Origin: an uncultured bacterium
GTDB lineage: Bacteria > Acidobacteriota > Vicinamibacteria > Vicinamibacterales > UBA8438
Assembly: GCA_963934795.1 (NCBI GenBank)
Contig: CAWWAF010000005.1
Span: 5,112 to 69,111, forward strand
DNA: 64,000 bases
Reading direction: 5' to 3'
Shown here in pieces: positions 22,501 through 41,911 of this stretch (its first letter is position 1; each line of letters opens with the position of its first letter). A program made the translations under genes and the position numbers. Under the pieces are notes generated by a model. That model saw nothing but the letters and a program-made list of their open reading frames with translations. It was not told where the DNA came from and did not search any database.

Positions 22501-22583
22501 AGGCCCCGCGCGCGTCGATGTTGTGCCCTGGCCTGACCGGTGCTAGTGTCGTGTTCGATGTATCCCGATACGCTGGAGAATTC

Positions 22584-23885: not shown

Positions 23886-24793
23886 TGGCCGCTGCACGTC
23901 GGTTCACGCAGGTCGTGTGCATCTTGGCTGCGGCAGGATGTCTATGGCCCCCGCCACCCGTCTCGGCGCAGAACCTGCAATATTTAAGCGGACAAAACGT
24001 CGTGCCGGCGTTCGAGGGATGGGAGAGGAACGCCGACGACTCATTCACGTTTTACTTCGGTTACCTGAACCGAAACTATCGGGAGGAACTCAGCGTTCCT
24101 CTGGGTCCCGAGAACCGCATCGAACCTGACCACCTGGGTCAGCCCCAACCGACCTACTTCTACCCGCGACGTCATCGGTTTCTCTTCAGCGTGCAGGTCC
24201 CGCCGGACTGGGGAGACCGCGACGTCCTCTGGACGCTCACCTCGGCCGGGAAGACGGAAACCGCCTACGGATCATTGCTGCCGGTCTGGGAGGTCAACGA
24301 CCAGGTCATCTCTGAGAACCGCGCCGGTGGTGGATACGCTGACGACAATCGGCCGCCCACGATCGCCCTTGTCGACGCGGCCGACCGTACGGCGACCGTG
24401 GGTGAACCTCTCTCGTTGACCGTTCGCCTCGGCGACGACGGCATTCCAGAGCCACGCGCAGTTCGCGGCACCAAGGACCCGCGCATTGACGTGGATGCAT
24501 CCGGACGGCCCTTGTTCGGAGCTGGCCGTTTCGGCCGCCGAACCGCGCTGGGTCTGCGGGTCGCGTGGCTGCACTGGCGAGGTCCGGGCACGGTGACATT
24601 CGCGCCCTGGCACATGGCAGGCATCGACGACCGCATGCCCGGCTGGGCCCCTCCCGAAGTGCCTCCGGACGGACGAACCAGCACGACGGCCACCTTCGAC
24701 ACACCCGGCACCTACGTGGTGCGGGCGATGGCAGACGACGGCTATCTGTCGGCGCCGATCGACATCACAGTCACAGTCCACGAGCCGCGTTGA
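23885..24793 (+). CDS. Secreted hypothetical protein with C-terminal Ig/PKD-like fold, coupled to the monooxygenase
   Basis: TGATG overlap; signal peptide ending VSA-Q; GQNVVPAFEGW, FGYLNRN, QPTYFYPRR, ATFDTPGTYVVRAMADDG. Confidence 0.75.
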   Translation: MAAARRFTQVVCILAAAGCLWPPPPVSAQNLQYLSGQNVVPAFEGWERNADDSFTFYFGYLNRNYREELSVPLGPENRIEPDHLGQPQPTYFYPRRHRFLFSVQVPPDWGDRDVLWTLTSAGKTETAYGSLLPVWEVNDQVISENRAGGGYADDNRPPTIALVDAADRTATVGEPLSLTVRLGDDGIPEPRAVRGTKDPRIDVDASGRPLFGAGRFGRRTALGLRVAWLHWRGPGTVTFAPWHMAGIDDRMPGWAPPEVPPDGRTSTTATFDTPGTYVVRAMADDGYLSAPIDITVTVHEPR

Positions 24794-25656: not shown

Positions 25657-28047
25657 ATGCGAAGATTTGAGGTTGGATCGGCGACTGCCGCACTCCTCGT
25701 AGTGGCGCTCGCCACCCCACCGCTCGCGTCCACCGCGTACGCCCAGGGGGGGGCCGGCGTTGCGGCGGTCGACACAGACCAAGCGACCATCAACCAGTAC
25801 TGCCTGGGCTGCCATAACGATCGTTCACTCCGCGGGGGACTGTCGCTGGAAGGCACGCCCTTGACGCAGGTTGCGGAACACACCGATGTCTGGGAGCGCG
25901 CCCTCCGGAAGCTACGAGCTGGTGCCATGCCGCCAGACGGTTCACCGCGACCAGATCCAGCGACCTATGCTGGCCTGGTGTCGTATCTCGAAACGACGCT
26001 CGACGCGGCGTCCATCGCCAGCCCGAATCCAGGCCGCACCGACACGTTCAGACGCCTGAACCGCACGGAATACCGGAACGCGATCAGGGATCTTCTGGCC
26101 CTCGACGTGGACGTCGCGACGCTCCTGCCACAGGACGATGCCAGCTTCGGCTTCGATAATGTCGGGGTCGTCGAGTTATCGCCAACCCTGATGGAGCGGT
26201 ATCTCACGGCGGCCCAGAAAATCAGCCGTCTGGCCGTCGGGAGCATGGCGATCGTGCCGGGCAGCCGCGTGGTCACCATGCGACCGGACGTGACGCAAGA
26301 AGGTCATCTGGCCGGGCTCCCGTTCGGCACCCGCGGGGGCACACGGGTCCAGCACACGTTTCCGCTCAACGGCGAGTACGAGATTGAGGTGCGACTGGCG
26401 CGTAACCGAAACGAGAACATTGAAGGGCTTCGGGAGCCGGATGTCCTGGAAATGACGCTGGACGGTGAACGGCTGGAACTGTTCACGGTGGTGCCGGACC
26501 GTAACCGGTTCGGCAGCTATTACGCGGACGAGGATGTCGACAAACACCTGAACGTCCGGGTGCCAATATCTGCCGGTCCGCACACGTTCGGCACCGCATT
26601 TCTGCAAAAGAATTCCGCGGTCATCGAAACAGAGCGTCAACCGTATCAAGCGCAGTTCAACCAGGACCGACACCCCCGCCAGCAGCCGGCGGTGCACTCC
26701 GTGTCCATCAGCGGACCGTTTCAACCGAGCGGTACTGGCGACACGCCCAGCCGGAGTCGCATTTTCAGCTGCCGACCCACCACGGCGGCCGATGAGGCAG
26801 ACTGCGCCGCGTCCATCATCTCTGGGCTGGCACGCCGCGCCTATCGACGGCCGGTCGCGTTCAGTGACATCGAGATGCCGATGGCCTTCTATGAGGAGGG
26901 CCGCACGGACGGCGACTTCGAGACAGGCATCGAGCTGGCGCTCCGGGCGTTGCTGACAAGCCCCGAGTTCCTGTTCCGCATCGAGCGCGACCCCGAGGGC
27001 GTGACCGACGGCGCCGCCTACGCGCTCAGTGACATCGAGCTGGCGTCGCGACTGTCCTTCTTCCTGTGGAGCAGCATTCCGGACGACGCGCTGATGGACG
27101 ACGCCGAGGCGGGGCGGCTGCGGACAGGATCCACACTCGAACGTCACGTGCGGCGCATGCTGGACGACCCCCGTTCGCGCTCGCTGACGACCAACTTTGC
27201 CGACCAGTGGCTGTATCTCCGTAACCTGGAGACGGTGGCCCCGAATCTTCGGCTGTTCCCCGATTTCGACGACAACCTGCGGACCGCGTTCCGACAGGAA
27301 ACGCAGATGTTGTTCGAGAGCATCGTGCGCGAAGACCGCAGCGTGGTCGATTTACTGGAGGCCAACTACACGTTCCTGAACGAGCGGTTGGCCCGCCACT
27401 ACGGCATCTCTGGCGTCTACGGGAACGACTTCCGCCGCGTGGAGCTGCCGGCGGACAGCGAGCGCCGCGGTCTGCTCGGACACGGCAGCATACTGACGGT
27501 CACCTCATACGCGACCCGCACCTCACCCGTGCTGCGAGGCAAGTGGATTCTCGAGAACTTGATGGGCATGCCACCGCCTCCACCGCCTCCGAACGTGCCC
27601 GCGCTGGAGGAGCCTGCACCAGGCGTCGCCGCCCGATCGATGCGCGAGCGGATGGAGCAACATCGCGCGAACGCCGTGTGCGCGTCGTGTCACCGGCTGA
27701 TGGACCCGGCGGGGCTCTCCATGGAGAACTTTGATGCCATCGGCCGCTGGCGAGACCGGGCCGATAACTCGACTCCGATTGACGCGTCAGGAAGTATTCC
27801 TGGCGGCGGCGCTTTCGACGGCGTAACCGGGCTGCGACAGGCCCTGCTGGCCCGGCCAGAGGTCTTTGTCGGCACGATGACCGAGAAGCTGTTGACCTAC
27901 GCCCTCGGACGCGGCCTCGCAACCCACGACGGCCCGGCCGTACGGCGCATCGTGCGCCGCGTCGCCGGCAACGACTACCAGTTCTCGGCCCTCGTCCTCG
28001 GTATCGTCGAGAGCAGTCCGTTCCAGATGCGGAGATCGCAACAATGA
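25657..28047 (+). CDS. DUF1592-family (DUF1587/1595/1592/1588/1585) diheme cytochrome c protein, copy 1
   Basis: YCLGCH, RKLRAGAMPP, RRLNRTEYRNAIRDLL, ELASRLSFFLWSSIPD, TSPVLRGKWILEN, CASCH, KLLTYALGR. Confidence 0.88.
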   Translation: MRRFEVGSATAALLVVALATPPLASTAYAQGGAGVAAVDTDQATINQYCLGCHNDRSLRGGLSLEGTPLTQVAEHTDVWERALRKLRAGAMPPDGSPRPDPATYAGLVSYLETTLDAASIASPNPGRTDTFRRLNRTEYRNAIRDLLALDVDVATLLPQDDASFGFDNVGVVELSPTLMERYLTAAQKISRLAVGSMAIVPGSRVVTMRPDVTQEGHLAGLPFGTRGGTRVQHTFPLNGEYEIEVRLARNRNENIEGLREPDVLEMTLDGERLELFTVVPDRNRFGSYYADEDVDKHLNVRVPISAGPHTFGTAFLQKNSAVIETERQPYQAQFNQDRHPRQQPAVHSVSISGPFQPSGTGDTPSRSRIFSCRPTTAADEADCAASIISGLARRAYRRPVAFSDIEMPMAFYEEGRTDGDFETGIELALRALLTSPEFLFRIERDPEGVTDGAAYALSDIELASRLSFFLWSSIPDDALMDDAEAGRLRTGSTLERHVRRMLDDPRSRSLTTNFADQWLYLRNLETVAPNLRLFPDFDDNLRTAFRQETQMLFESIVREDRSVVDLLEANYTFLNERLARHYGISGVYGNDFRRVELPADSERRGLLGHGSILTVTSYATRTSPVLRGKWILENLMGMPPPPPPPNVPALEEPAPGVAARSMRERMEQHRANAVCASCHRLMDPAGLSMENFDAIGRWRDRADNSTPIDASGSIPGGGAFDGVTGLRQALLARPEVFVGTMTEKLLTYALGRGLATHDGPAVRRIVRRVAGNDYQFSALVLGIVESSPFQMRRSQQ

Positions 28048-29390
28048 TGATCACAAAGAAGGCGCTTCCGCGCCGGACATTCCTCAAGGGTGTGGGCGCC
28101 TCGGTGGCACTGCCGTTACTCGATTCCATGGTGCCGGCCTTCACCGCCCACGCCGCCACGGTGGCCAATGCGCCGAGGCGACTGGGGTATGTCTTCATTC
28201 CGATGGGCATGAATCCCGCACCCTGGACACCCGAAGAGGTCGGCCCGCTCACGCGGCTGTCGCCCTCACTCGCGTCGCTCACACCCCATCTGAACGACGT
28301 GACGGTCGTCACGAACATGGAGTTGGAGAACGCTCACACCACGGGGAACCACGCGTCGTCGAACGCGGCGTTTCTCAGTTGCCTCCGTGGAAAGCGGACC
28401 GAGGGCAGCGACTACGAGCTGGGCGTGACGGTCGACCAGCTTGCGGCCCAATCCATCGGCGGCGATACCCCGATTCCATCGCTCGAACTGGGCACCGACA
28501 TGATCGTGCAGGTTGGTGCCTGCGACAACGGCTACGCGTGCGTCTACCAAAACAGCCTGTCGTGGGCGTCTCCCACCTCGCCGTTACCGACCGAAGCCGA
28601 CCCGCGTGTGGTCTTCGAGCGACTGTTCGGTGACGGGGGCACGCCGGACGAGCGTCGGGCCGAAATGAAGAAGAACGCCAGCATCCTTGACTGGGTGCTG
28701 GGAGACATGTCGAAGCTGCAGCAATCGCTGGGCTCCGGCGACCGGACCAAGGTCGACGAGTACGTCACGACCGTTCGTGAGGTCGAACGACGTATCCAGT
28801 TGGCCGAGCATCAGACGGCCGGTTCGCCACTACCGGATCTGACCCGTCCCACGAGCGTACCGACAGACTGGGAAGACCACGTCAAGCTGATGTACGACCT
28901 CCAGATACTGGCGATGCAAGCGGACTTGACGCGGGTCATCACGTTCCAGATGGCTCGGGAGGCGAGCACCCGCAGCTACCCGCAGATCGGCGTGCCGGAA
29001 CCGCATCACCCGGTCTCGCACCACGTCAACGACCCTGAAAAGCTCGCCAAGCTGGCCAAGATCAACGCGTATCACGTGTCCTTGTTCGCTTACATGGTCG
29101 GCAGGATGGCATCCACGCCGGACGGCGACGGGTCGCTGCTCGACCATTCGACCTTCATGCTCGGCAGCGGCATGGGGAATCCGGATGTGCACGACCACCG
29201 GAACCTACCCATCATCGTGGCCCGAGGTGGCAGCGACAAGTCCTGGGGCGGCCGGCACGTGAAATACGAGCAGGCAACGCCGCTGGCCAATTTACACCTG
29301 ACGCTGTTGGACGATGTCGGCGTGCACCTCGACCGCTTCGTCGACAGTACCGGTCACGCCGTCGAGGTGACCGAACCGCTGTCGCTCTAG
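28044..29390 (+). CDS. DUF1552 family protein, copy 1
   Basis: PRRTFLKGVGASVALPLLDSMVPA, SLELG, CDNGYACVY, PRVVFERLFG, HHPVSHH; ATGA overlap with the upstream gene. Confidence 0.88.
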   Translation: MMITKKALPRRTFLKGVGASVALPLLDSMVPAFTAHAATVANAPRRLGYVFIPMGMNPAPWTPEEVGPLTRLSPSLASLTPHLNDVTVVTNMELENAHTTGNHASSNAAFLSCLRGKRTEGSDYELGVTVDQLAAQSIGGDTPIPSLELGTDMIVQVGACDNGYACVYQNSLSWASPTSPLPTEADPRVVFERLFGDGGTPDERRAEMKKNASILDWVLGDMSKLQQSLGSGDRTKVDEYVTTVREVERRIQLAEHQTAGSPLPDLTRPTSVPTDWEDHVKLMYDLQILAMQADLTRVITFQMAREASTRSYPQIGVPEPHHPVSHHVNDPEKLAKLAKINAYHVSLFAYMVGRMASTPDGDGSLLDHSTFMLGSGMGNPDVHDHRNLPIIVARGGSDKSWGGRHVKYEQATPLANLHLTLLDDVGVHLDRFVDSTGHAVEVTEPLSL

Positions 29391-29494
29391 TGATTGGACG
29401 ACTGCGCCCCTCGGACGGCGCGCAGCCACTGCGAGAGCCGTTGCGTCGGCTCCCGTGAGAGAGTGCCGGGGTTCAAAATGTCGGGAGATTTGTC

Positions 29495-30985
29495 ATGACT
29501 CGTTCCGTATCCTTTAGTACCGCCGCACTAGTCGCGTGCGTGCTCAGCGCGTCGGCCGCGACCGCGACCGCAGCAGTGGATGTGCCGCTCGTCGACGCGG
29601 TGAAAGCGGGCGACGTGGCGCGAGCGCGAACGCTGATCGAGCAAGGCGCCGGCGTCAATGACGCAGAGCCAGACGGCACCACGCCCCTGCACTGGGCCGC
29701 CCACAAGCGGCACTTGGAGCTCACACAGCTGTTGCTCGGAGCCGGCGCTGTCGCGAACACCGGGAACCGCTACGGCGTCCGGCCGTTGTCGCTCGCTGCG
29801 GTCAACGGCGACGGCCCTGTCATCAAGGCGCTCCTCGAAGCCGGCGCGAATCCGAACAGCACGCTCATGGAAGGTGAGACGGCACTGATGACCGCTGCCC
29901 GGTCTGGCAGCGTCGAGGCCGTGGAACTGCTGCTAGACGCCGGTGCCAACGTCAATGTCCAGGAAAGCTGGAAGGGGCAGACGGCGCTCATGTGGGCTGC
30001 CGCCGAAGGCCATGCCGCCGTTATCCCCCCACTCGTGGCCCACGGCGCGGACCCTGGACTCCGCTCGAATCGAGGCTTCACCGCGCTGCTCTTCGCCGCA
30101 CGCGACGGGCAGACCGATGTGGTCCAGACGCTCCTGGAGGCCGGGGCTGACCTCGATGAACAGCTGTCAATCAACTCGACGCTCACCGCCGGCGGCGTTG
30201 AACAGCGTCGGGCATCCGACGCCGGGTTGAATGCGTTTCTCCTGGCGGCGGGCAACGCGCACTTCGAATTGGCCGCATATCTCATGGACCGTGGCGCCGA
30301 TCCCAACGCTGCGCCGCGCGGGTGGACCGCGCTGCATCAGCTCTCATGGGTCCGCAAAGCGGGTATCGCCGGCAGCAACAATCCAGCGCCACGTGGGTCC
30401 GGCGTCATGACAAGTCTCGCGTTTGCGCGCAAACTCATTGCCAGTGGCGCGGACCTCAATGCGCGGGTGACGACGCGACCGCCCGCCGGCATCACGGAGC
30501 TGAACTTCATCGGCGGCACGCCGATGCTGTTGGCCGCGCGCACCGCCGACGCCGAATACATGCGACTGCTCGCGGACGCTGGCGCCGACCCGATGCTCAC
30601 CAATGACGACGGCTCCACGACGCTCATGGTCGCGGCCGGGCTCGGCACCTCATCGCCAGGTGAAGACCCCGGCACCGAAACCGAGGTCCTGGAAGCGGTG
30701 CAACTCGCTCTGGAGCTTGGCCTGGACATCGACGCGGTCGACGGCAAGGGCGAGACCGCCATGCACGGCGCGGCCTACAAGCACCTCCCCCGGGTCACCA
30801 CCTTCCTGGTGAATGCTGGCGCCGACATCGCGGTGTGGAACCGACAGAACGACCGCGGTGCATCCCCGCTCGACATCGCTATCGGGATGCACCGGGGAAT
30901 GAACATCCTGAGCTCACCTGCCACGGCGGACGCCATTCGCGATGCCATGCGCGTGGGCGGCGCCGATCCTGATTCAGCGCCTTGA
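29495..30985 (+). CDS. Exported ankyrin-repeat protein, copy 1
   Basis: Signal peptide; repeated GxTPLHWAA / GETALMTAAR / GQTALMWAA / GFTALLFAAR units. Confidence 0.9.
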   Translation: MTRSVSFSTAALVACVLSASAATATAAVDVPLVDAVKAGDVARARTLIEQGAGVNDAEPDGTTPLHWAAHKRHLELTQLLLGAGAVANTGNRYGVRPLSLAAVNGDGPVIKALLEAGANPNSTLMEGETALMTAARSGSVEAVELLLDAGANVNVQESWKGQTALMWAAAEGHAAVIPPLVAHGADPGLRSNRGFTALLFAARDGQTDVVQTLLEAGADLDEQLSINSTLTAGGVEQRRASDAGLNAFLLAAGNAHFELAAYLMDRGADPNAAPRGWTALHQLSWVRKAGIAGSNNPAPRGSGVMTSLAFARKLIASGADLNARVTTRPPAGITELNFIGGTPMLLAARTADAEYMRLLADAGADPMLTNDDGSTTLMVAAGLGTSSPGEDPGTETEVLEAVQLALELGLDIDAVDGKGETAMHGAAYKHLPRVTTFLVNAGADIAVWNRQNDRGASPLDIAIGMHRGMNILSSPATADAIRDAMRVGGADPDSAP

Positions 30986-33099
30986 CGGATCACTCGGTCG
31001 TCGACGTCAGCAACCCCCTGCTCAGCGACTGGACCGGGCCATTCGGCGGGGTTCCGGACTTCCATCGACTGGACCTCGACGCGCTGAAACCAGCGCTCGA
31101 GGCGGCCATGGCTCGCCAGCTCGCCGAGGTTGCGGCGGTTGCATCCAACCCGGAGTCCCCAACGTTCGAGAACACGATCGTCGCCCTGGAGCGCGCCGGC
31201 CGCGAGCTTGCCCGGGTCGCGGCCTACTACGAAGTCTGGAGTGCGAACCTCTCCACCCCGGCGTTCCGTGCGGTCGAAGCAGAGATGGCGCCACGCCTGG
31301 CCGAGTGTGAATCGACAATTTTTCACAATGCGGCGTTGTTCGCGCGGGTCCAGGCCGTGCACAGCAGCCTGGGTCGCCCACCGCGTACCTCTGACCCAAA
31401 TCCAGCCGCCGTCGACACGCTGCGGCCCGATCAACAACGATTGGTTCAGATCATCTACGAGCGCTTCGCGCGCAACGGTGCGACCCTCGACGAAGCGTCG
31501 CAGACACGGTATGCCGACATCGAGCAACAGCTTGCGGCACTACAGACACGCTTCTCGAACAACGTGCTGGCCGATGAAGAGGGTCACGTGACCTATCTCA
31601 ACGCCGCGCAATTGGACGGACTGCCAGACGCCTTCATCCAGGCCGCGGCAACGGCCGCCGCCTCGCACGGACGCGACGCTGATTACGCGATCACGAACAC
31701 CCGCTCGTCGGTGGACCCGTTCCTGACGTTTTCGGACGAACGGCCTCTGCGAGAGCGCGTCTGGCGCGCCTACTACGCGCGTGGAGACAACGGCGACGAG
31801 CACGACAACAACGCGATCCTCGCTGAGATCCTTCGGCTGCGCCATGCGCGCGTGCGGCTGCTGGGGTACGACGACTACGCCACCTGGCGGCTCGAGAACC
31901 GGATGGCCAAGACACCGCAACAGGCCCTCGATCTCATCGGAGCGGTGTGGCCCGCTGCCCTGGCGCGGGTGGAGGCGGAGGTGGCCGACATGCAGGCAGT
32001 GGCTGACGCCGAGGGCGCCGACATCGCCATCGAACCGTGGGACTACCGCTACTACGCCGAGAAGGTGCGGCAGACGACCTTCGACCTCGACTCGAACGAG
32101 GTAAAACAGTATCTCCAGCTCGACAAGCTCCGCGATGGCATGTTCTTCGTAGCCGGGGCGTTGTTCGATTTCGCATTCTCCGCGATCACCGACGGCTCCG
32201 TCCCGGTGTTTCACGAAGATGTCAGCGTGTGGGAGGTCACACGCCGCACGACCGGCGAGCACGTCGGAGTCTGGTATCTGGACCCCTACGCGCGGCCGGG
32301 CAAGGCGTCTGGCGCCTGGGCCACCACCTTTCGCAGTCACGAATCCTTCGAGATGACCGTCGGGGTGCTGGGCTCGAACAATTCAAACTTTATCAAGCCG
32401 GCGGCTGGTGCACCGACCCTGGTCTCGTGGGACGACGCCACCACCTTGTTTCACGAATTCGGACACGCACTTCACTATTTCTCATCGACGGTCGACTACC
32501 CGTCACTGAACGGCGGCGTGCGTGACTACATCGAGGTGCAGTCACAGTTGCTTGAGCGCTGGTTGCTCACCAACGAGGTCATCACCGGTTTCCTCGTGCA
32601 CCACGAGACCGGGGAGACGATTCCCGACCACCTCGTCGCCCGGATCAGAAACGCCGCGACCTTCAACCAGGGTTTCGCGACGGCCGAATATCTGGCCTGC
32701 GCCCAGATGGACATGCGGTTTCACACGACGGACCCGACCTCGCTCGATCCCAAGACGTTCGAACGCGAGGTGCTGGCTGACTTGCGGATGCCGGACCAGA
32801 TCGTGATGCGGCACCGAAGCACACACTTCAGCCACATCTTCTCGGGTGAGGGGTACGCGGCGGGCTACTACGGCTACATGTGGGCGGATGTGCTGACGGC
32901 GGACGCGGCGGAGGCATTCGCGGAGGCGCCGGACGGGTTCTACGATGCAGAGTTGGCCCAGAAGCTCGTAACTCACGTCTTTGCCGCGGCCAACGCCGTC
33001 GATCCCGCAGACGGGTATCGCGCGTTCCGGGGACGGGACGCCACGATCGGCGCTCTCATGCGTGGCCGCGGCTTCCCCGTGCCGGAGAACGACGCGTGA
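30982..33099 (+). CDS. M3 family metallopeptidase (peptidyl-dipeptidase Dcp-like)
   Basis: PTFENTIVALE, DPYARPGKASGAW, TLFHEFGHALH, HFSHIFSGEGYAAGYYGYMWA. Confidence 0.92.
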   Translation: MTDHSVVDVSNPLLSDWTGPFGGVPDFHRLDLDALKPALEAAMARQLAEVAAVASNPESPTFENTIVALERAGRELARVAAYYEVWSANLSTPAFRAVEAEMAPRLAECESTIFHNAALFARVQAVHSSLGRPPRTSDPNPAAVDTLRPDQQRLVQIIYERFARNGATLDEASQTRYADIEQQLAALQTRFSNNVLADEEGHVTYLNAAQLDGLPDAFIQAAATAAASHGRDADYAITNTRSSVDPFLTFSDERPLRERVWRAYYARGDNGDEHDNNAILAEILRLRHARVRLLGYDDYATWRLENRMAKTPQQALDLIGAVWPAALARVEAEVADMQAVADAEGADIAIEPWDYRYYAEKVRQTTFDLDSNEVKQYLQLDKLRDGMFFVAGALFDFAFSAITDGSVPVFHEDVSVWEVTRRTTGEHVGVWYLDPYARPGKASGAWATTFRSHESFEMTVGVLGSNNSNFIKPAAGAPTLVSWDDATTLFHEFGHALHYFSSTVDYPSLNGGVRDYIEVQSQLLERWLLTNEVITGFLVHHETGETIPDHLVARIRNAATFNQGFATAEYLACAQMDMRFHTTDPTSLDPKTFEREVLADLRMPDQIVMRHRSTHFSHIFSGEGYAAGYYGYMWADVLTADAAEAFAEAPDGFYDAELAQKLVTHVFAAANAVDPADGYRAFRGRDATIGALMRGRGFPVPENDA

Positions 33100-33115
33100 A
33101 CATGGAGGTAGACCT

Positions 33116-34411
33116 GTGAAGAACAGCCAGACAAAACAGTGGTTCGCACTCCTCACCGTGGCCCTCATGTCGGCCGCGTGTACGACCGCCGCCGGCGCAC
33201 GCGCGGACGATGTCGAAAGCCCGCGCGACCTCGCGGTGGCCGCCCCCGAGTCGGTGGGCCTCTCGTCCACCCGCGTGGAGCGTCTGGAGGCAGGTATGCG
33301 GCAGTTCGTCGAGGACGGTCGGCTGGCGGGGGTCCATACGCTGCTGGCCAGGCACGGCAAGATTGTCAGCTCCAGCGTGGCCGGCGTGACCAGCGTCGAG
33401 AATGGCACGCCCCTCACCGAGGACGCCATTTACCTCATCTATTCGATGAGCAAGCCGATCACCGGCGTCGCCATGATAATGCTCTACGAAGAAGGCAAGT
33501 GGCGTCTGAATGATCCAGTGACGAAGTTCATCCCGGAATTCGAGAACTTGCAGGTCTACGCTGGCGACGGTGCAGATGGCGAACCCCTGCTCGAAGACTC
33601 GAACCGGTCGATGACCATGCGCGAACTGATGACCCACTCGTCAGGGCTGGCCTACGGTCTGGGGTCCGGAAACGTCGTCGACCGGATGTATCGCGAATCG
33701 GGGGTACTCGACTTCCGGAACAAACCGCTACAGTCAATGATAGACACGCTGGCCGAGACACCGCTGCTGTATCAACCCGGCGAGCGCTGGTACTACAGCA
33801 TCGCCGTGGACGTGCAGGGATATCTGGTCGAGAAACTCTCGGGACAGCCGTTCGATGAATTCCTCCAGGAGCGGATCTTCGCGCCGCTGGGCATGGTGGA
33901 CACGGCCTTCTACGTGCCAGCGGACAAACTCGACCGCCTTGCCCTGATTCATGGCGAGAACGAAGACGGCACCCTGACGGTGCAGCAGAACGGCGACCCA
34001 ACGCAGGCACCGGCCGGGCCCTCAGGCGGTGGCGGTCTCTACAGCACCACGCTCGACTACATGCGGTTCAGCCAGATGGTGCTTAACGGCGGCGCGCTCG
34101 ACGGCGTTCGGCTGCTGGCGCCGCGCAGCGTCGAGATGATGCGCACGAATCACCTGCAGGAACAGGCGCTCAGTACGATGGCACCGGGATCCGGATTCGG
34201 GCTCGACTTCGGCGTCGTCATGGATCCGGCTGCCGCTGGTGAACCGTACTCGAAGGGCTCGTTCCGGTGGGGCGGGGCCGCCGGCACCTGGTTCTGGATC
34301 GATCCGGTCGAGGACTTCGTGTTCGTTGGGATGATTCAGCACCGCGGTCGTGCCGTTCGTGATGTGCAGGGCGTCTCCCGGAACCTGACCTATTCGGCGA
34401 TCATCGACTAG
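33116..34411 (+). CDS. Serine hydrolase, beta-lactamase class C-like, probable lipoprotein
   Basis: IYSMSKPIT (SxxK), LMTHSSGL, YQPGERWYYS, GGGGLYST, WGGAAGTWFWIDP; GTG 33116 follows GGAGGT; LMSAA-C lipobox-like. Confidence 0.88.
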   Translation: MKNSQTKQWFALLTVALMSAACTTAAGARADDVESPRDLAVAAPESVGLSSTRVERLEAGMRQFVEDGRLAGVHTLLARHGKIVSSSVAGVTSVENGTPLTEDAIYLIYSMSKPITGVAMIMLYEEGKWRLNDPVTKFIPEFENLQVYAGDGADGEPLLEDSNRSMTMRELMTHSSGLAYGLGSGNVVDRMYRESGVLDFRNKPLQSMIDTLAETPLLYQPGERWYYSIAVDVQGYLVEKLSGQPFDEFLQERIFAPLGMVDTAFYVPADKLDRLALIHGENEDGTLTVQQNGDPTQAPAGPSGGGGLYSTTLDYMRFSQMVLNGGALDGVRLLAPRSVEMMRTNHLQEQALSTMAPGSGFGLDFGVVMDPAAAGEPYSKGSFRWGGAAGTWFWIDPVEDFVFVGMIQHRGRAVRDVQGVSRNLTYSAIID

Positions 34412-34449
34412 GGACCCGGCGGGGTCGGCGCTAGTAGGCCTCCGCGCGG

Positions 34450-35235
34450 CTACGGCTGGCAGACTTCGGCGAGACTCTGCACCGACGTCACATTCAGACT
34501 GGCGGGTCCGCCTCCCGACTCATCGCGGATGAGCAACCCCTTGGTCTCCACTCGATGCCCGAGATACGGCTCCGGGCTGGGAAACACATACATGAGGCCA
34601 TATTCATGGTTCCCAAGGGGAATCGCCTGGGCCTCGACCAACTCGTCACCACTCGACGGGGCGGGGTCACCAGCACGTACCTCGGCACTCGCGCTGGACA
34701 AGACCCACTTGGACGCGTCGCCGCCCAGGCACCCGACGACGCGCACGAGCGCAAAATTCGGCACCACGCCGGGGCCGTCCTCGCCCTCGACCGTGACGCT
34801 TGTGAGCCCTGCCGTGGACAGTTCCTCGTCGCCGGCCGGGTATCCATTTCGCTCCAGGACGTACGTGATGATGTCGACGTATGCGTCGCCGGCCAGCGTC
34901 TCTGAGGCACCGGGCGGCATCGATTGCATGCGGTCAAAGAGACGGTCCAGGGTCAGGCCGGTCCAGTCCCGCACAAAGACGTCGCCGGTCAGCGACCGCC
35001 CCGCGCCACCAGACAGATCCGCCCCATGGCACCGCATGCAGGTGGCTTCATACTGGGTGCGTCCACGGACGGCCTGCGCCGGGGAATAGACGCCCTCCTT
35101 CACGGTCCGCCCCTCCTGGGCACGAGTCACCGCCGACGTGCAACAGATGCCGACGACGGTTGCACTCAGCGCCCACGCCATCCCTCGCGCGGTTCGGTGC
35201 CAATGTAGTGCTTTCATAGTGACTCGCATTCTCAC
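34450..35235 (-). CDS. Exported monoheme cytochrome c with a C-terminal Cys-pair domain
   Basis: GVYSPAQAVRG, CMRCHGADLSG, MQSMPP axial Met, VVGCL...EVCQP; last gene of cassette 2. Confidence 0.85.
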   Translation of the reverse strand: MRMRVTMKALHWHRTARGMAWALSATVVGICCTSAVTRAQEGRTVKEGVYSPAQAVRGRTQYEATCMRCHGADLSGGAGRSLTGDVFVRDWTGLTLDRLFDRMQSMPPGASETLAGDAYVDIITYVLERNGYPAGDEELSTAGLTSVTVEGEDGPGVVPNFALVRVVGCLGGDASKWVLSSASAEVRAGDPAPSSGDELVEAQAIPLGNHEYGLMYVFPSPEPYLGHRVETKGLLIRDESGGGPASLNVTSVQSLAEVCQP

Positions 35236-36788
35236 GACGCGCCGAGCGAGCGGAGCAGAGCGGTGGTGGCCGCCGCTGCCTCCACGTTGCCAGTCAGGCC
35301 GCGCTCCACGATGGACAAAGGCGTCTGACCGCGACTGTTCGCCACCGCGAGGTCAGCCCCACGGTCGACGAGGCGCTGGACGACCGCAGCGAACCCCTTG
35401 TCAACGACGTGGTGCAACGCGGTGCTCCCGTCCGCATCGACCGCATTGAGGTCGACGCCGAGGTCCGCCACCAGCGTCACGGCCGCCAACGTCGCCACCT
35501 CGTCGTACATCTGCGCCTGAAAGGCGGGCGCTTTGGCGAGCGCCCGGTCACGTCGATCCCACACGGCGTAGCGCCAACTCGCACCCGCCGCGAGCATCAG
35601 CGGCGTCCAGCCATTCTTCAGCGGCAACCTGGCGTCGGCGTCGGCTGCCGCGAGCACCCGCATGATCTCCACCTCTGTGAACTTCGCCGCGAGTGCAAAC
35701 GGCGTGGCCCCCAAGAGGTGCTCTCCAATCATCAGCACCTGGCCGTTCCGGGTCACCTTCGTGGCCAGGGTCACCTGCGCGTCAGGCCGAGCGCCATGGG
35801 CCAACAGTGCCTCGACCACCACCACGTCGCCGGTCAGCGCGGCGGCGTGGAGCGCGGTGTAGCCGGCCGACGCCGCCGCGGGGTTCGCGCCCTGCTCGAG
35901 TAGGAATAGTGCCAGCGCCCGGTGGTCGCTGTGGACCGCCACGACCAGCGCGGTGGCCCCGTCTGGCGCACGGTCATTGACATCCGCTCCGGCCTCGAGC
36001 AGCAGACGTGCCGACGCGACGTCGCCGTGCCGGGCGGCGAACAGCAGTGGGGTGAACCCGCCGACGCGGGTCTCCTCCGCGTCGGTCCCGTAGTTACGAC
36101 CCAACTCGCCATATTTGAGTTCGGACTGCAAGCGCCGACTAATCACTTTTCGACGCTCTCGCGACCGGGCCGCTACATCGGCGCCATACTCGATGAGGAG
36201 ACGCACAACACCGGCATGTCGCTGGGCGACCCCCCACATCAGAGCTGTTTGGTGCTCGGACTGTTCGCGCGCGTCGACATCGGCGCCGGCCACCAGTAGG
36301 GCACGCACGGCGTCGGTGCTGCCCGTCCGGGCGCACCCCATCAGGACGGTCTCACCGGTACCCATCGCGGCGTTCGGATCGGCGCCCGCCTTCAGCAACA
36401 GACCGACCATGGCTGCGCTGCCGTTCTCGCATGCGAGCGACAGCGGCGTCACGCCCAGATCGTTCGCGGCGCCGGCGTCGGCACCGGACGCCACCAACCG
36501 CGCCGCCAGCATCTCGTCGTCGAAGTACGTCGCCCAGTGCAACGCGGTGGCCCCATCGGCCTGCGCCGCGTTGACGTCGACGTCCGGTACGAATGCCATC
36601 GCTCGCTCGGACTGCCCTGCCCTCACCGCCTCAATAAGACGCAGCTCGGGCGTCTGCGCCGACAGGTTGGCGCCTCCAACGACTGCGACCAGGGCTGCGC
36701 CCACGAGACATCGTGGGAACCGCCCCCATCGGGCTCGGTCGTCGGGCCTCAGCCGCGAGATCGAATGCTTGTCACGCCGGTAGGCCAC
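35232..36788 (-). CDS. Exported ankyrin-repeat protein, copy 2
   Basis: DGATALHWA, GVTPLSLACENG, QTALMWGVA, GFTPLLFAARHG, GWTPLMLAAG. Confidence 0.9.
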   Translation of the reverse strand: MAYRRDKHSISRLRPDDRARWGRFPRCLVGAALVAVVGGANLSAQTPELRLIEAVRAGQSERAMAFVPDVDVNAAQADGATALHWATYFDDEMLAARLVASGADAGAANDLGVTPLSLACENGSAAMVGLLLKAGADPNAAMGTGETVLMGCARTGSTDAVRALLVAGADVDAREQSEHQTALMWGVAQRHAGVVRLLIEYGADVAARSRERRKVISRRLQSELKYGELGRNYGTDAEETRVGGFTPLLFAARHGDVASARLLLEAGADVNDRAPDGATALVVAVHSDHRALALFLLEQGANPAAASAGYTALHAAALTGDVVVVEALLAHGARPDAQVTLATKVTRNGQVLMIGEHLLGATPFALAAKFTEVEIMRVLAAADADARLPLKNGWTPLMLAAGASWRYAVWDRRDRALAKAPAFQAQMYDEVATLAAVTLVADLGVDLNAVDADGSTALHHVVDKGFAAVVQRLVDRGADLAVANSRGQTPLSIVERGLTGNVEAAAATTALLRSLGAS

Positions 36789-38146
36789 TAGATCCCCGAC
36801 AGCCGCGCCGCGCTCCCCCCGGCCAGTAGGGTCGGGAGCGGCCCAGTGCTGTCCCCGATCTGCTCGACTGGTGCGCCGAGCTTGTCGAGCAGGCTGACGT
36901 GCAAGTTCGCCAGCGGGGTCCGGTCGCGTTCGTCGAACGCCACATGACGACCACCACGGAGGGCGCCGGCCCCGCCGCCGAGCAGCACGATCGGCAGGTT
37001 GTATGGCGAATGGGCATTGCTATCGCTCATGCCCGCTCCGTACATCAGCACCATGTGGTCGAGCAGCGAGCCATCGCCGTCCGGTGTCGCGCGGAGCTTC
37101 TCGACGAACGTGGCAAAAAGACCCATGTGATAGCGATTGATCTTCGTGAGCTTGGCCAGGGCGTCTGGCACGCCCCGATGGTGCGACAACGGGTGGTGCG
37201 CGTCCGGCACATCGATCTCCGGATAGGTCCGACCGCTCAACTCATGGCCACTCATGAACGTCGTCACGCGCGTCCGGTCGGTCTGGTGAGCGAGCAGTTG
37301 CAGGTCGTACATGAGAGCCGCATGGTCTGCGAACCCTGCGGGCACACCCATCGGACGGACCACGAGCGGCACCTCGCGGTCGCCCTGGGCTTCGGCCACT
37401 TCGATACGCCTCTCAACGTCGCGGACGGCATCGAGGTACGCGCCGAGCTTCCGCTGATCGCCGGTGCCCAGTGCCCCCTGCAGCCGTGCCACGTCTTCGC
37501 GAACGGAATCAAGAATGCTGCGCTGCTCACGCCGGCGCGTCTCCCGTGCGACCGGATCAGTGGTGCTGTTGTCCCCGAACAGCCGCTCGAAGACCGCGCG
37601 CGGGTTGTGCTCCATCGGTAGCGGAGTCTCCGAATCGCGCCACGAGATGGTGTAGGAAAATGCGCAGCCGAACCCGCCGCTGTCACATGAGCCCGCGAAG
37701 TTCGCCCCCTCGAGTCCGAGTTCCAGTGACGCCAGCGGGGTGTGCTGGCCCAGGGCGCGCGCCGCGATCTGGTCCATGGACACCGCCGCCGGGTTCCAGA
37801 CACCAGGATGGACATCCGTGAGGAACCGGGTCGCCGCGCGCGAGTGGGTCCCACCACGGGTCCCTGGCGGCGGCGTGCAATTGAGACCAGACACCACGAG
37901 CAGCTGGTCCTTGAACGGGGCCAGCGGCTCGAGAATCGGAGTCAGTTCAAACCCCGCTCCAGTCGCGGCCGGCGTCCAGTTCTGCATCACCATCCCGTTC
38001 GGCACATAGACGGCGCCAAACCGTACCGTCGCACTCGCGGCGGTCAGGGCTGGCGTCATACTGTCGAGGAACGGTAAGGCCACGGTCGCGCCCAACCCGC
38101 GAAGCACCATGCGCCGCGATATCGCACGTTTGGTGATTACGCTCAT
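36788..38146 (-). CDS. DUF1552 family protein, copy 2
   Basis: SRRMVLRGLGATVALPFLDSMTPA, YVPNG, CDSGGFGCAF, PRAVFERLFGD, HHPLSHH; start ATG 38146 overlaps the upstream stop. Confidence 0.88.
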   Translation of the reverse strand: MSVITKRAISRRMVLRGLGATVALPFLDSMTPALTAASATVRFGAVYVPNGMVMQNWTPAATGAGFELTPILEPLAPFKDQLLVVSGLNCTPPPGTRGGTHSRAATRFLTDVHPGVWNPAAVSMDQIAARALGQHTPLASLELGLEGANFAGSCDSGGFGCAFSYTISWRDSETPLPMEHNPRAVFERLFGDNSTTDPVARETRRREQRSILDSVREDVARLQGALGTGDQRKLGAYLDAVRDVERRIEVAEAQGDREVPLVVRPMGVPAGFADHAALMYDLQLLAHQTDRTRVTTFMSGHELSGRTYPEIDVPDAHHPLSHHRGVPDALAKLTKINRYHMGLFATFVEKLRATPDGDGSLLDHMVLMYGAGMSDSNAHSPYNLPIVLLGGGAGALRGGRHVAFDERDRTPLANLHVSLLDKLGAPVEQIGDSTGPLPTLLAGGSAARLSGI

Positions 38147-40626
38147 GACTCCGATCTCCTCATCTGAAACGGCATGCTTTCGACGACACCAAGGATAATC
38201 GACGACCAGCGATAGTCGTCTGCCGCCTCGGCGACAATCTTCCGGATGGCCGGCTGATCGGCCGCCGCCATGCGTCGGCCAATCGCGTAGGTCAGCAATT
38301 TTTCGGTCACGGTTCGCACAAAACTCGTTTCGTGGGCCAACACCGCACGACGCAGCGCCGCCGGCCCGTCGATCTGGGTGCCATCGGCCAAGGCGCCGGC
38401 CGCGTCGACGGGGGCCCCATACGGATCGACGGTCCGCCACCGCCCGATGGCATCAAAATGTTCCATGGCGAAACCGGGCGGGTCCATCATTCGATGACAC
38501 GTCGCGCATGCCGGATTCGCACGATGCATCTCTAGGCGCTCGCGGACCGACTTGGGCTCGACGTCTCCATGATTGTCTTCGAGCGCGGGCACATCATCCG
38601 GTGGAGCGGACGGCGGCATGCCGAGCAGGTTATCCAGCACCCACTTGCCTCGGAGGACTGGCGACGTACGGGTCGGGTAGGCGGTCAGGGTCAGCAGGCT
38701 CGCCTGCCCGAGAAGGCCACCTCGGTCGTCGTCCACCGCGACGCGCCGAAACCGCTCGCCGTATACCCCGGTGATGCCGTAGTGACGTGCAAGTCGCTCG
38801 TTGACGAACGTGTGGTTCGCGCTCAGCAACTGGGGCAGTCCGTAGTCCTGCTCGATGGCGTCTTCAAGAAACAACCGGGTCTCTTGCTCCATGTCCGAGC
38901 GGAGGTTCTCGTCAAAATCGTAGAACACATCTGTGTCAGGAATCACCCCGCGAATGCGGCCGAGCTGCAACCACTGGGTGGCGAAGGTGTCCACCAACGC
39001 GCGCGCCTTCGGGTGAGACAGCATTCTGCGCACCTGCCGTTCGCGCTCCGCGGGGTCACTCAGCCGACCGGCCTCCGCTGCCGCGAGCAACGGCTCGTCG
39101 GGGATATCGCTCCACAAGAAGAGCGACAAACGCGACGCTAGTTCCAGATCGCTGAGTCCGTACGCCGCACCAGTCTCCACGTCGACAGGATCTCGTTCAA
39201 TGCGAAACAGAAACTCCGGAGCTACCAATAGCCGCTCGATCGCCTTCTGAATTCCGGTGTCGAACCCATTGGCGTCCCGCCCGGCCTCATAGAACGGTCG
39301 CAGCGTTGCCACATCCGCATCGGTGGCCGGTCGCCGATACGCGCGCCGAGCCAACTCGGACAAAATCTGGGTGGCGCACGCCGTTTCGGCCGCCGACGCG
39401 ACGCTGCCAGTGTCCGTTGCGCCATCGGCCGAGCTACTGGGAGAGCACGTAAAGATCTGCCTTCGACTGGCGGTCTCTCCTGCGCCGCTCGCGGCATACG
39501 GACCGGCTACCTCGATTCGCTCGACCGCGGCGTTCCCGTCGTAGAAACCCAGCCCGCTGAGGGAAAAGCCGGACAGGCGCCGCTCGAGCACGCCGGTGGG
39601 CTCGGTGCGTGCCCCCACGAAGGACACGCCCAAACGATGCATGCCGGCCTCGGCGGGGAACCGGACCACGAGTCCAGCGTCCGCGTCGATAGACACAAAC
39701 TGCTCCCAGTCCGGGTCTCCCCGAATGGTTCCAAAGAAGCTATAGGCCGAGGGATACCCCACCCGATCCGCCCCCCCTACCGTGAACCGTTTCACCAACG
39801 CCCCATCCAGGCGCACCTCGACCTGCTGCTCGGTCCCCATGCCGACGATGTAGTCGTAGATCATCCGGCGCAGGCGGACCTTCACCTCGTACTCGCCGTC
39901 CAACGGAAAGTAGTGCCGAACCGCCAACCCACCGCGTGACCCGAACGGCAGGTCATCGCTCATCCGTTCGTCTTGGTAGAGCAGACGCGGGGTGTCGTAG
40001 GTCGTCGCGGCAAACCCCGGTCCGACGCTCAGGTCACCCACGGCCAATCGGCTGATCCGATTCGCTGCCGACAGGTAGCGGTCGAAGAGGGCGGGTGATA
40101 CCGACAAGACGTCGCCGTTGGTGGCAAAGCCGTCCTGGTCGACATCGTCTGGCGGAAACAGCAACCAACGTTCGTCAGCATCGACCGCGAGCAGGCTGCT
40201 GACGGCGTGTCGGTACTCTGTGGCGGTGAGGCGACGAACGGGTGGACGACCTGGATCGGGATGGCTCGCCGCCGCCTCGTCGAGCGCCGTTTCCAACTGC
40301 GTCACGAACCGTCGGTGTTCATCAGGATCGGGCTGCGGGCTGCCAACCGGCGGCATCATGCCGAGGCGCAGTTTACGCACCGCCTGTTCCCAGAGCTCGG
40401 TATCGGCCGATACGTCGGCGGCGTCCACGTGCTCGAACGAGACGGGCGCCGCCCCTTGCGCCACACGCTGGTCACTGTGGCAACTCACGCAGTACTGGTT
40501 CACCAGCGCCTGGCGTGCCTCCGCCTCTGCGACCGTGGGAGCCGGTTGAGCCCAGACGGCACTCTGCATCAACAGTGCGGCGGTTGCCGTCACTGCTCCC
40601 GCACGCCGCGCCAACCGTCTGGACAT
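38143..40626 (-). CDS. DUF1592-family diheme cytochrome c protein, copy 2
   Basis: YCVSCH, RKLRLGMMPP, ELASRLSLFLWSDIPD, TSPVLRGKWVLDN, CATCH, KLLTYAIGR; ATG 40626 follows GGGAG. Confidence 0.88.
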   Translation of the reverse strand: MSRRLARRAGAVTATAALLMQSAVWAQPAPTVAEAEARQALVNQYCVSCHSDQRVAQGAAPVSFEHVDAADVSADTELWEQAVRKLRLGMMPPVGSPQPDPDEHRRFVTQLETALDEAAASHPDPGRPPVRRLTATEYRHAVSSLLAVDADERWLLFPPDDVDQDGFATNGDVLSVSPALFDRYLSAANRISRLAVGDLSVGPGFAATTYDTPRLLYQDERMSDDLPFGSRGGLAVRHYFPLDGEYEVKVRLRRMIYDYIVGMGTEQQVEVRLDGALVKRFTVGGADRVGYPSAYSFFGTIRGDPDWEQFVSIDADAGLVVRFPAEAGMHRLGVSFVGARTEPTGVLERRLSGFSLSGLGFYDGNAAVERIEVAGPYAASGAGETASRRQIFTCSPSSSADGATDTGSVASAAETACATQILSELARRAYRRPATDADVATLRPFYEAGRDANGFDTGIQKAIERLLVAPEFLFRIERDPVDVETGAAYGLSDLELASRLSLFLWSDIPDEPLLAAAEAGRLSDPAERERQVRRMLSHPKARALVDTFATQWLQLGRIRGVIPDTDVFYDFDENLRSDMEQETRLFLEDAIEQDYGLPQLLSANHTFVNERLARHYGITGVYGERFRRVAVDDDRGGLLGQASLLTLTAYPTRTSPVLRGKWVLDNLLGMPPSAPPDDVPALEDNHGDVEPKSVRERLEMHRANPACATCHRMMDPPGFAMEHFDAIGRWRTVDPYGAPVDAAGALADGTQIDGPAALRRAVLAHETSFVRTVTEKLLTYAIGRRMAAADQPAIRKIVAEAADDYRWSSIILGVVESMPFQMRRSES

Positions 40627-40924: not shown

Positions 40925-41911
40925 GTGACCACGCAACCCGCTCGACACGCCGTGCGACTGGCGCTCGTCATCGTCACGTTGACCCTGACCACGCCCGCGA
41001 GTGTGCTCGCACAATCGTCGCAGGGACTACGTACGCCCTGGGGTGACCCTGACCTGCAAGGTCTGTGGACGAACGCCACCCTGACACCGGTGGAGCGGCC
41101 AGATGCGATGGCCGACAAGACCGTGCTGACGGCCGAGGAAGCGGCGGAGCTCGAGGTCAGGTCGGCCGAGGACCGCGCCGCATCGGACACCTTTATTCCT
41201 GGCAACGTCGGGGCCTACAACCAGTTTTGGATGGACGGCGGCACGAACGTGACGGGCGACCGACGAACGGCGCTGATCGTCGATCCGCCCGATGGCAAAA
41301 TTCCCTGGACCCCCGCAGGACGCCAGCGACTGGCCTCGGATTCGGCCAGATACGGCGTGGGACCGTTCAACACCTACGAAGACGCGGACACAGGAGAGCG
41401 CTGTCTTACGGACGGTCTCCCTTTTGTTCCGCTCCAGGGATACAACATGAACTACCACATCCTGCAGTCGCCAGGGTGGGTGGCCATTCTCACCGAGATG
41501 TTCCACGACGTGCGTTTGATTCCGGTCGATGGCCGGGACCACGTGCCGCCGCATGTCGGCCAGACGCTGGGAGACTCCCGCGGGCGATGGGAGGGCGAGA
41601 CGCTGGTCGTAGAGACCACCAGCTTCTCCGACAAGAGCGACTTTCTGTGGCGAGCGACCTGGCGCGCAGCGCGGCCCAGCCTGCATCTGGTCGAACGGTT
41701 CACCCGGCTGGACGACGAGACCATCGACTACCAGTTCACCATGTCGGACCCGGACATGTTCACCCAACCGTGGACAGCATCGGTGCCGATGACGACCAAC
41801 CAAGCGTCCCGCGGCGTCACCGCGGGACCGATGTATGAGTACGCGTGCCACGAAGGCAACTACGGCCTCCGCAACATTCTCCGTGGCGCACGCACCGAAG
41901 AACTTGACTGA
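40925..41911 (+). CDS. Secreted hypothetical protein, 'RC...ACHEGN' family (paralog 2)
   Basis: RTPWGDPDLQGLW, DPPDGKIP, GERC, GDSRGRWEGETLVVET, YEYACHEGNY; TGATG overlap with the PQQ gene. Confidence 0.8.
   Translation: MTTQPARHAVRLALVIVTLTLTTPASVLAQSSQGLRTPWGDPDLQGLWTNATLTPVERPDAMADKTVLTAEEAAELEVRSAEDRAASDTFIPGNVGAYNQFWMDGGTNVTGDRRTALIVDPPDGKIPWTPAGRQRLASDSARYGVGPFNTYEDADTGERCLTDGLPFVPLQGYNMNYHILQSPGWVAILTEMFHDVRLIPVDGRDHVPPHVGQTLGDSRGRWEGETLVVETTSFSDKSDFLWRATWRAARPSLHLVERFTRLDDETIDYQFTMSDPDMFTQPWTASVPMTTNQASRGVTAGPMYEYACHEGNYGLRNILRGARTEELD

Follow-up and report, generated by a model that had tools for sequence, protein, structure and literature searches.

The window analysed here is a stretch of 64,000 nucleotides (nt) from an uncultured bacterium of the order Vicinamibacterales (Acidobacteriota; GenBank assembly GCA_963934795.1, contig CAWWAF010000005.1). 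It contains two convergent gene cassettes, at 25657-30985 (+) and 40626-34450 (-), each of which encodes a large DUF1592-type protein with two CxxCH haem-attachment motifs, a DUF1552 protein and an ankyrin-repeat protein. An earlier note on this DNA, made by reading the sequence, had pointed out that the same gene order occurs twice and head-on, and all the features that it listed were found in the sequence where it had placed them. The genes of the two cassettes are given below with their positions in the window; E is the expectation value of the Pfam match.

25657-28047 (+): cassette 1 DUF1592-type protein, 796 amino acids; Pfam domains PSD3-PSD5-PSD4 (DUF1592)-PSCyt3-PSD2 and an N-terminal Cytochrome_CBB3 match
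28044-29390 (+): cassette 1 DUF1552 (HXXSHH) protein, 448 amino acids; E 1.5e-94; RRTFLKG motif
29495-30985 (+): cassette 1 ankyrin-repeat protein, 496 amino acids; hydrophobic N-terminal segment; Pfam ankyrin families
38143-40626 (-): cassette 2 DUF1592-type protein, 827 amino acids from the ATG at 40626; two CxxCH motifs; the domain set of cassette 1
36788-38146 (-): cassette 2 DUF1552 protein, 452 amino acids from the conserved start; E 7.4e-93; SRRMVLRG motif
35232-36788 (-): cassette 2 ankyrin-repeat protein; hydrophobic N-terminus; start uncertain, the candidates being the GTG at 36788 and an internal site near 36704
34450-35235 (-): cassette 2 monohaem cytochrome c, 261 amino acids; one CxxCH motif; Cytochrome_CBB3 match of 34.7 bits (cut-off 27); C-terminal half uncharacterised

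In both cassettes, the start of the DUF1552 gene overlaps the stop of the DUF1592 gene by 4 nt. The open reading frame (ORF) of the cassette 2 DUF1552 protein extends to 38440, and its conserved start (MSVITK...) lies at 38146. The third protein of each cassette consists of tandem ankyrin repeats, with Ank_2 matches of E 2.3e-63 and 2.6e-55 and several matching stretches per protein in Pfam; the NCBIfam scan of these proteins gave ankyrin-containing models only, far below the cut-off. Export of the cassette proteins was judged by reading their N-termini. Copies 1 and 2 are 48% identical in the DUF1592 protein, 45-46% in the DUF1552 protein and 40% in the ankyrin protein, and by this measure the two cassettes of the window are old paralogues.

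The same arrangement was found many times in this genome, the assembly of which comprises 3.87 Mb in 202 contigs. The use of tblastn and ORF calling revealed 21 close DUF1592/DUF1552 pairs, three divergent pairs and fragments at contig ends, and the genome holds 25 matches to PF07586. The 21 cassettes total 104.5 kilobases (kb), which is 2.7% of the assembly, and the 4-nt overlap is present at 11 of their 21 DUF1592/DUF1552 junctions. A homologue of the window ankyrin adjoins 18 of the 21 close pairs. The three cassettes without it are C186, where the contig stops 25 nt past the DUF1552 gene, and C68 and C74, which have other genes in their flanks. No ankyrin gene was found on the contigs of the three divergent pairs. 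The ankyrin gene lies mostly downstream on the same strand; it is upstream on the same strand in C10, C46 and C64, divergent in C39, C42 and C106, and convergent in C60. On contig C74 (3526-4140), a 204-residue ORF that begins 22 nt after the ankyrin-less cassette gave a match to cytochrome c' below the cut-off (E 3.5e-4).

One explanation of these counts is that the linkage has no meaning and the ankyrin gene was merely carried along when the cassette was duplicated. The three families were indeed duplicated together, so that adjacency inside one genome is partly inherited. This explanation was already disfavoured, and we regard it as very improbable, since the adjacency outlasts the changes of gene order listed above and the divergence of the paralogues to about 40% identity. 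It is also seen in records that bear the labels of several phyla, and in five other genera 106 of the 116 full-length ankyrin matches adjoin a DUF1552 gene.

The earlier note made its proposal depend on a linkage of the ankyrin gene to the pair in other genomes, and such linkage was found. Among 40 relatives, DUF1552 was present in 23 of the 24 genomes of the window's family, with 1 to at least 42 matches per genome (mostly 15-42), and in 9 of 16 other families of the order, with 1-13 matches. The genomes of the five other genera are complete or nearly so. Here, a full-length ankyrin match lay within 5 kb of 109 of the 125 DUF1552 matches, at a chance expectation of 2-8% per gene, and most of the 16 DUF1552 genes without an ankyrin are divergent and have the lowest scores. 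In an evenly drawn set of 301 Acidobacteriota genomes, 50 had both families, 8 had DUF1552 only, 3 had only the ankyrin, each of them close to the E threshold, and 240 had neither; genome G085 in this phylum sample adds one genome with both and one adjacent pair, and none of the conclusions rests on it. Outside the window's family, among the matches listed, the ankyrin lay within 5 kb for at least 69 of 115 DUF1552 rows, and the adjacency was observed in at least 37 of 49 genomes and at least 11 of 17 families. Finally, a search of species-representative genomes seeded with the ankyrin alignment yielded 80 loci, 74 of them with DUF1552 within 5 kb and 66 with DUF1592 in addition, and most of the misses were at contig ends. 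The loci with DUF1552 within 5 kb are distributed as follows; the assignments are the labels of the records, some of which are possibly binning errors.

Acidobacteriota: 52 of 56 loci
Verrucomicrobiota: 10 of 11 loci
Planctomycetota: 5 of 6 loci
Acidimicrobiia: 3 of 3 loci
Candidatus Multivorans: 2 of 2 loci
Rhodospirillales: 1 of 1 locus
Bifidobacteriaceae: 1 of 1 locus

The DUF1552 proteins encoded beside P0003-like ankyrins in Verrucomicrobiota and Planctomycetota (loci L087-L136) are 55-62% identical to window copy 1. Copy 1 shares 30-59% identity with the paralogues of its own genome, and all but one or two of these values are below the figure for Verrucomicrobiota and Planctomycetota. 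Judged by identity, this likeness suggests either that the paralogue lineages are very old or that genes were transferred from one phylum to another.

Cognate pairing within the cassettes, which the earlier note had wished to see examined by phylogeny, was assessed from distance matrices. For 18 complete triples, Mantel correlations were 0.52 between DUF1592 and DUF1552 (p 2e-4), 0.60 between DUF1552 and the ankyrin (p 2e-4) and 0.49 between DUF1592 and the ankyrin (p 8e-4). The nearest-neighbour pairs C5a-C144, C40b-C65 and C42-C164 agree across all three families. The DUF1552 paralogues of this genome are 40-67% identical to one another and the ankyrin paralogues 36-55%, values low enough to indicate that the duplications are old. 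The pairing is kept in other genomes as well: in 60 of the 74 ankyrin-seeded loci, the ankyrin and the adjoining DUF1552 protein have their best match in this genome in the same cassette, whereas 10,000 rounds of permuted pairing gave 19.9 such loci on average and never more than 34. The DUF1592 protein shares this best paralogue in 31 of 65 loci. The latter count is depressed because the DUF1592 protein of C144 is a 208-residue fragment, so that 23 loci of the C144 type map to its nearest relative, C5a. Such subtype-for-subtype pairing across genomes argues for a protein that acts as a specific partner and against both a general helper and a hitch-hiker, and we consider it very likely that the ankyrin protein is the cognate partner of the DUF1592/DUF1552 pair. 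A complex prediction for DUF1552 (residues 39-448) and the ankyrin (residues 27-496), each supplied as an alignment, returned a score of 0.00, which is no answer and speaks for neither side.

The ankyrin might instead act only transiently, in the maturation of either the haem protein or DUF1552, by moving haem or by shaping its partner, as has been proposed for Cj1386 and AnkB with catalases. Two papers provide a precedent, in which ankyrin proteins encoded beside catalase genes interact with the catalases and promote their activity or haem loading (PMC10294975; PMC3349705). A general helper, however, would not need a diverged copy in each cassette (36-55% identity between paralogues), nor would it keep its subtype pairing from one phylum to another (observed in 60 of 74 loci). 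The scan of window genes gave no match to a catalase family, and none of the genes scanned beside the ankyrin encodes a catalase. The known catalase-helper ankyrins are also far smaller than the cassette ankyrin of about 500 residues. We therefore hold a maturation factor to be unlikely.

The earlier note assigned to copy 2 an additional, overlapping monohaem cytochrome c. The gene is present, and its start overlaps the stop of the ankyrin gene by 4 nt. Full-length homologues of this cytochrome adjoin a cassette ankyrin in 5 of 6 cases, in four other genera and on the opposite strand. From its gene neighbourhoods, the small cytochrome is the fourth gene of one cassette subtype, not of the module generally.

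The occurrence and expression of the cassettes were followed in environmental data. The stretch was found in marine and seawater metagenomes of 12 studies, and in both cassettes all three genes are partly covered by contigs that come from four metatranscriptomic libraries. Two contigs from RNA libraries span DUF1592/DUF1552 junctions, at 27583-28726 in cassette 1 and at 37730-38470 in cassette 2, and in one RNA run each of the six genes is matched by contigs that are identical to it or differ by a single letter at most. Some RNA runs left parts of the 15 kb stretch uncovered, which is uninformative. The RNA-library contigs on these genes, which come from seawater, suggest that abundant marine and soil bacteria make use of the cassette system.

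The DUF1592-type protein, of Sec type as judged by its N-terminus, contains the Pfam domains PSD3, PSD5, PSD4 (DUF1592), PSCyt3 (DUF1588) and PSD2 (DUF1585) in this order, all above the cut-off in both copies, and the NCBIfam scan matched no family to either protein. In the cassette 1 protein, a hydrophobic N-terminus is followed by a first haem motif (C49xxCH), an MPP motif (M91PP) and a second CxxCH at C675. The earlier note had seen two CxxCH motifs in each large protein; both are present in each copy, and all 19 aligned DUF1592 paralogues of this genome keep them without exception, as they do the MPP motif that follows the first haem site. The second one, C675xxC678H679, sits inside PSCyt3. 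The N-terminal domain scored 35.1 bits in copy 1 and 26.4 bits in copy 2 against Cytochrome_CBB3, the cut-off of which is 27. The structural model, with a predicted local distance difference test (pLDDT) of 78.8 and a predicted template modelling score (pTM) of 0.75, combines a helical, cytochrome-like N-terminal part with a beta-sandwich (about 197-359) and, as its C-terminal half, a large helical region.

The central part of the protein, already singled out as the main difference between the copies, proved to be the most variable one. Mean pairwise identity over residues 197-358 is 0.34, compared with 0.48-0.62 in the other mature regions; the length of this part ranges from 149 to 183 residues across the paralogues, and the two window copies share an identity of 0.30 there. 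The beta-sandwich resembles modules of the carbohydrate-binding module (CBM) families CBM35, CBM36 and CBM6, PNGase F and the jelly rolls of TNF and C1q, with Z-scores of 7-8.3 over 103-129 residues. Nearly all Foldseek and VIA rows for the DUF1592 model fell on residues 197-359, so the helical C-terminal half was barely probed. No CBM match was found by Pfam in the two copies scanned. On its modelled fold, the segment at about 197-359 is a jelly roll, and its identity as a carbohydrate-binding module stays borderline.

The conserved positions of the DUF1552 protein were determined in an alignment of 53 sequences, drawn from this genome, from the loci of 28 relatives and from 7 database proteins. 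The twin-arginine-like motif that had been recognised in each DUF1552 protein is RRTFLKG in the first copy and RRMVLRG in the second, and its arginines R10 and R11 are invariant in 53 of 53 sequences. With a hydrophobic stretch and then an AxA-type site after the arginine pair, and with residues 1-38 disordered in the model, the protein carries, as far as its sequence tells, a twin-arginine translocation (Tat) type signal. Residues 1-38 (28044-28160 in the window) are unusually conserved for such a region: L23, L26, M29 and P31 are invariant in all 53 sequences and P24 is kept in at least 90%. This may reflect recognition by a dedicated factor or a second role of the signal region.

Besides R10 and R11, the residues D131, Q132, D294, R297, H322, H326, H327 and H383 are invariant in all 53 sequences, while H103, C160, C166, H321, H344, D367 and H405 are kept in at least 90%. 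The earlier note had read conserved clusters of both histidines and cysteines here. The histidine cluster holds across the homologues, with H322, H326 and H327 kept without exception. The Cys pair has the form C-D-x-G-x-x-C in copy 1 and a spacing greater by one residue in copy 2, and a divergent paralogue has a deletion of the loop that carries it. Since the spacing varies and the pair is absent from one divergent paralogue, it reads as a disulfide, and it is probably not a metal site.

The NCBIfam scan gave no match for the DUF1552 proteins at E <= 0.01, and a search of the DUF1552 profile against solved chains by sequence gave two rows only, at chance level (E 0.35). The fold was more informative. 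An AlphaFold2 model (pLDDT 81.2, pTM 0.83) was matched by Foldseek to type I sulfatases and other enzymes of the alkaline-phosphatase superfamily at E about 1e-5. VIA-align gave Z-scores of 15.6-16.6 over 242-286 residues, with a root-mean-square deviation of 3.6-5.0 and 6-12% identity, the matches being sulfatases, nucleotide pyrophosphatases/phosphodiesterases, phosphonate monoester hydrolases and phosphoethanolamine transferases. According to the model, DUF1552 has the core fold of the alkaline-phosphatase/sulfatase superfamily, into which a long helical hairpin (about 201-292) is inserted. Residues N54/G55, H103, D131, H322/H326/H327, H383 and H405 appear to fall at the places of the superfamily's metal ligands and nucleophile. 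The order of the conserved His and Asp residues fits the ligand positions, with no conserved nucleophile and no CxPxR motif, by a reading of the alignment. From the topological order of the conserved residues and the known ligand patterns, a histidine would occupy the nucleophile position. A whole-genome search for sulfatase-family proteins gave one match, a weak one.

The modelled fold raises the question of whether the module could be a hydrolase or transferase. DUF1552 would then be a divergent enzyme of the phosphatase, sulfatase or phosphodiesterase type, the DUF1592 jelly roll would bring or hold the substrate, the haems would be structural or redox-sensing, and the ankyrin would act as an adaptor or regulator. 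The fold speaks for this, because it matches hydrolases, transferases and mutases of the alkaline-phosphatase superfamily only. The large number of paralogues with a variable binding domain resembles hydrolase families, and sulfatase genes lie near PSCyt genes, as noted by He et al. (2017; PMC5615132). Nevertheless, no Ser, Thr or Cys is conserved at the expected nucleophile place of the alignment. Two invariant CxxCH motifs and a class-I-like cytochrome domain would be costly for mere structure, and one subtype has its own dedicated cytochrome c. We consider this alternative doubtful, if a serious one.

Taking the results together, the three proteins of each cassette most likely work together in the periplasm. 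The reading that we favour, with a probability of roughly 45%, is that the trio is a haem-wired periplasmic metalloenzyme with substrate-specific paralogues, in which the ankyrin protein is a cognate subunit. DUF1552 would be the catalytic subunit with a His-ligated metal site, folded or loaded with metal in the cytoplasm and then exported through Tat. The two haems of the DUF1592 protein would pass electrons between the DUF1552 site and soluble periplasmic carriers, for example, the cytochrome c of copy 2. The ankyrin solenoid would serve as a stoichiometric cognate subunit or adaptor of the DUF1592-DUF1552 complex, not as a general chaperone. The variable jelly roll would pick the substrate, which may be a carbohydrate or some other small organic molecule; with the jelly roll as a selector, the 20-40 paralogous cassettes per genome would form a substrate-diversified enzyme family.

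Several points weigh against this reading. Haem attachment, metal binding and contacts among the three proteins are all putative. The usual Ser, Thr or formylglycine nucleophile and the first Asp ligand are unconserved in the alignment as read. To our knowledge, the known members of the alkaline-phosphatase superfamily are hydrolases, transferases and mutases and not redox enzymes, which makes the term oxidoreductase, used in the earlier note, one of two live readings. The Z-scores of the jelly roll (7-8.3) are within a range that the tool calls a common arrangement, and TNF and C1q score alike. A profile-profile comparison of DUF1552 with the DUF1501 proteins of this genome gave 3% probability, and the C-terminal stretch alone was aligned; DUF1501 has six matches in the genome (contigs C105, C19, C91, C37, C9 and C15). 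Three close pairs and all three divergent pairs have no adjoining ankyrin, so that the pair can exist alone, and copy 2 alone within this genome has a small cytochrome directly adjacent. The counts across genomes overstate their statistical weight, as kin genomes depend on each other. Contigs from RNA libraries may hold DNA, and a contig that covers two genes is no proof of one transcript.

A bolder form of the metalloenzyme reading, which we judge improbable as it stands, is that the trio represents a new class of periplasmic redox enzyme, with a His-ligated metal on an alkaline-phosphatase-type scaffold, fed by two haems, held by an ankyrin protein and diversified into dozens of substrate-specific paralogues. 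If this were true, the trio would be a major unrecognised route for the oxidative turnover of organic matter, possibly of carbohydrates. It takes up 2-3% of some marine and soil acidobacterial genomes, and few uncharacterised gene families of Planctomycetes, Verrucomicrobia and Acidobacteria are as large as DUF1592/DUF1552 and the sister DUF1501 module, the function of which both He et al. (2017) and Kamneva et al. (2012) describe as not known. The constant third partner offers an experimental handle for pull-downs and co-expression, and the fold assignment of DUF1552 offers another, since it suggests a putative metal site for mutagenesis and ester or redox substrates for screening.

The other genes of the window were also inspected. 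Two genes lie between the cassettes: an M3 peptidase gene at 30982-33099 (+), which is also covered by contigs from RNA libraries, and a beta-lactamase-family gene at 32981-34411 (+). As called, these ORFs overlap by 119 nt, and therefore the second one probably starts further in. Genes for pyrroloquinoline quinone (PQQ)-dependent dehydrogenases with a beta-propeller are located at 18021-20063 (-) and 41911-44022 (+), the latter beyond copy 2, and a DUF3179 protein gene (44041-45456, +) directly follows the second of them. The PQQ dehydrogenase was considered as a fourth component and rejected: 11 of 59 genes lie within 10 kb of a cassette, compared with 8.5% of the genome (P about 0.01), and the link was judged too weak because the genome holds about 60 copies (about 59-61). 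The product of the gene at 40925-41911 (+) is 328 residues long, is hydrophobic at its N-terminus and gave no Pfam match; its family numbers about 67 copies in this genome. As a cassette-linked family, these proteins of about 330 amino acids were rejected too: a cassette lies no more than 10 kb away from 10 of the 67 copies (P about 0.06). At 22401-24793 (+), in a stretch of lower G+C content (0.61), there are two ORFs (494 and 302 amino acids) that have no Pfam match and fail the filter on third-position G+C content (GC3) that the other genes pass.

The PSCyt3 and PSD domains were reportedly defined in Rhodopirellula baltica by Studholme et al. in 2004. The unit of the window resembles the PSCyt3/PSD and DUF1552 pair in its set and order of Pfam domains, in the adjoining DUF1552 gene, in the many copies per genome and in having no known function. 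It differs by the large cognate ankyrin as a third gene, and by its lineage, since the pair is known from the Planctomycetes-Verrucomicrobia-Chlamydiae (PVC) group and the window belongs to the Acidobacteriota (Vicinamibacterales). According to He et al. (2017; PMC5615132), PSCyt3 genes usually stand beside an unknown gene family, their function is not known, and CBM domains in other PSCyt proteins suggest a role with carbohydrates. The statement of the earlier note that the DUF1592/DUF1552 pair has no known function agrees with the searched papers that name these families, which give none. The same papers make no mention of an ankyrin partner of the DUF1552, DUF1592 or PSCyt families, although supplements might show the neighbours.

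A second system is the module of DUF1501 with PSCyt1, PSCyt2 and PSD1 in Planctomycetes and Verrucomicrobia, for which the available part of Kamneva et al. (2012) proposes electron transport (PMC3542564). In that account, it likewise pairs a protein with a Tat motif with a large protein that has cytochrome motifs and often bears carbohydrate-binding domains, and there are many paralogous clusters per genome. The Pfam families are different, however, the profile probability is the 3% given above, and that account reports no ankyrin partner. With the alkaline-phosphatase superfamily, the DUF1552 model has the core fold in common (Z 15.6-16.6), and it is set apart by its 6-12% identity, the helical hairpin, the mostly histidine conserved residues, the lack of a nucleophile motif and the cytochrome partner. 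In AnkB/KatB of Pseudomonas aeruginosa, Cj1386/KatA of Campylobacter jejuni and AnkB/CatB of Xanthomonas, an ankyrin protein is likewise encoded beside the haem protein that it serves. In the window, the partner is a c-type haem protein together with DUF1552, and there is one diverged ankyrin per cassette. The unit is thus the known, uncharacterised PSCyt3/PSD and DUF1552 pair extended by a dedicated ankyrin protein as its third gene.

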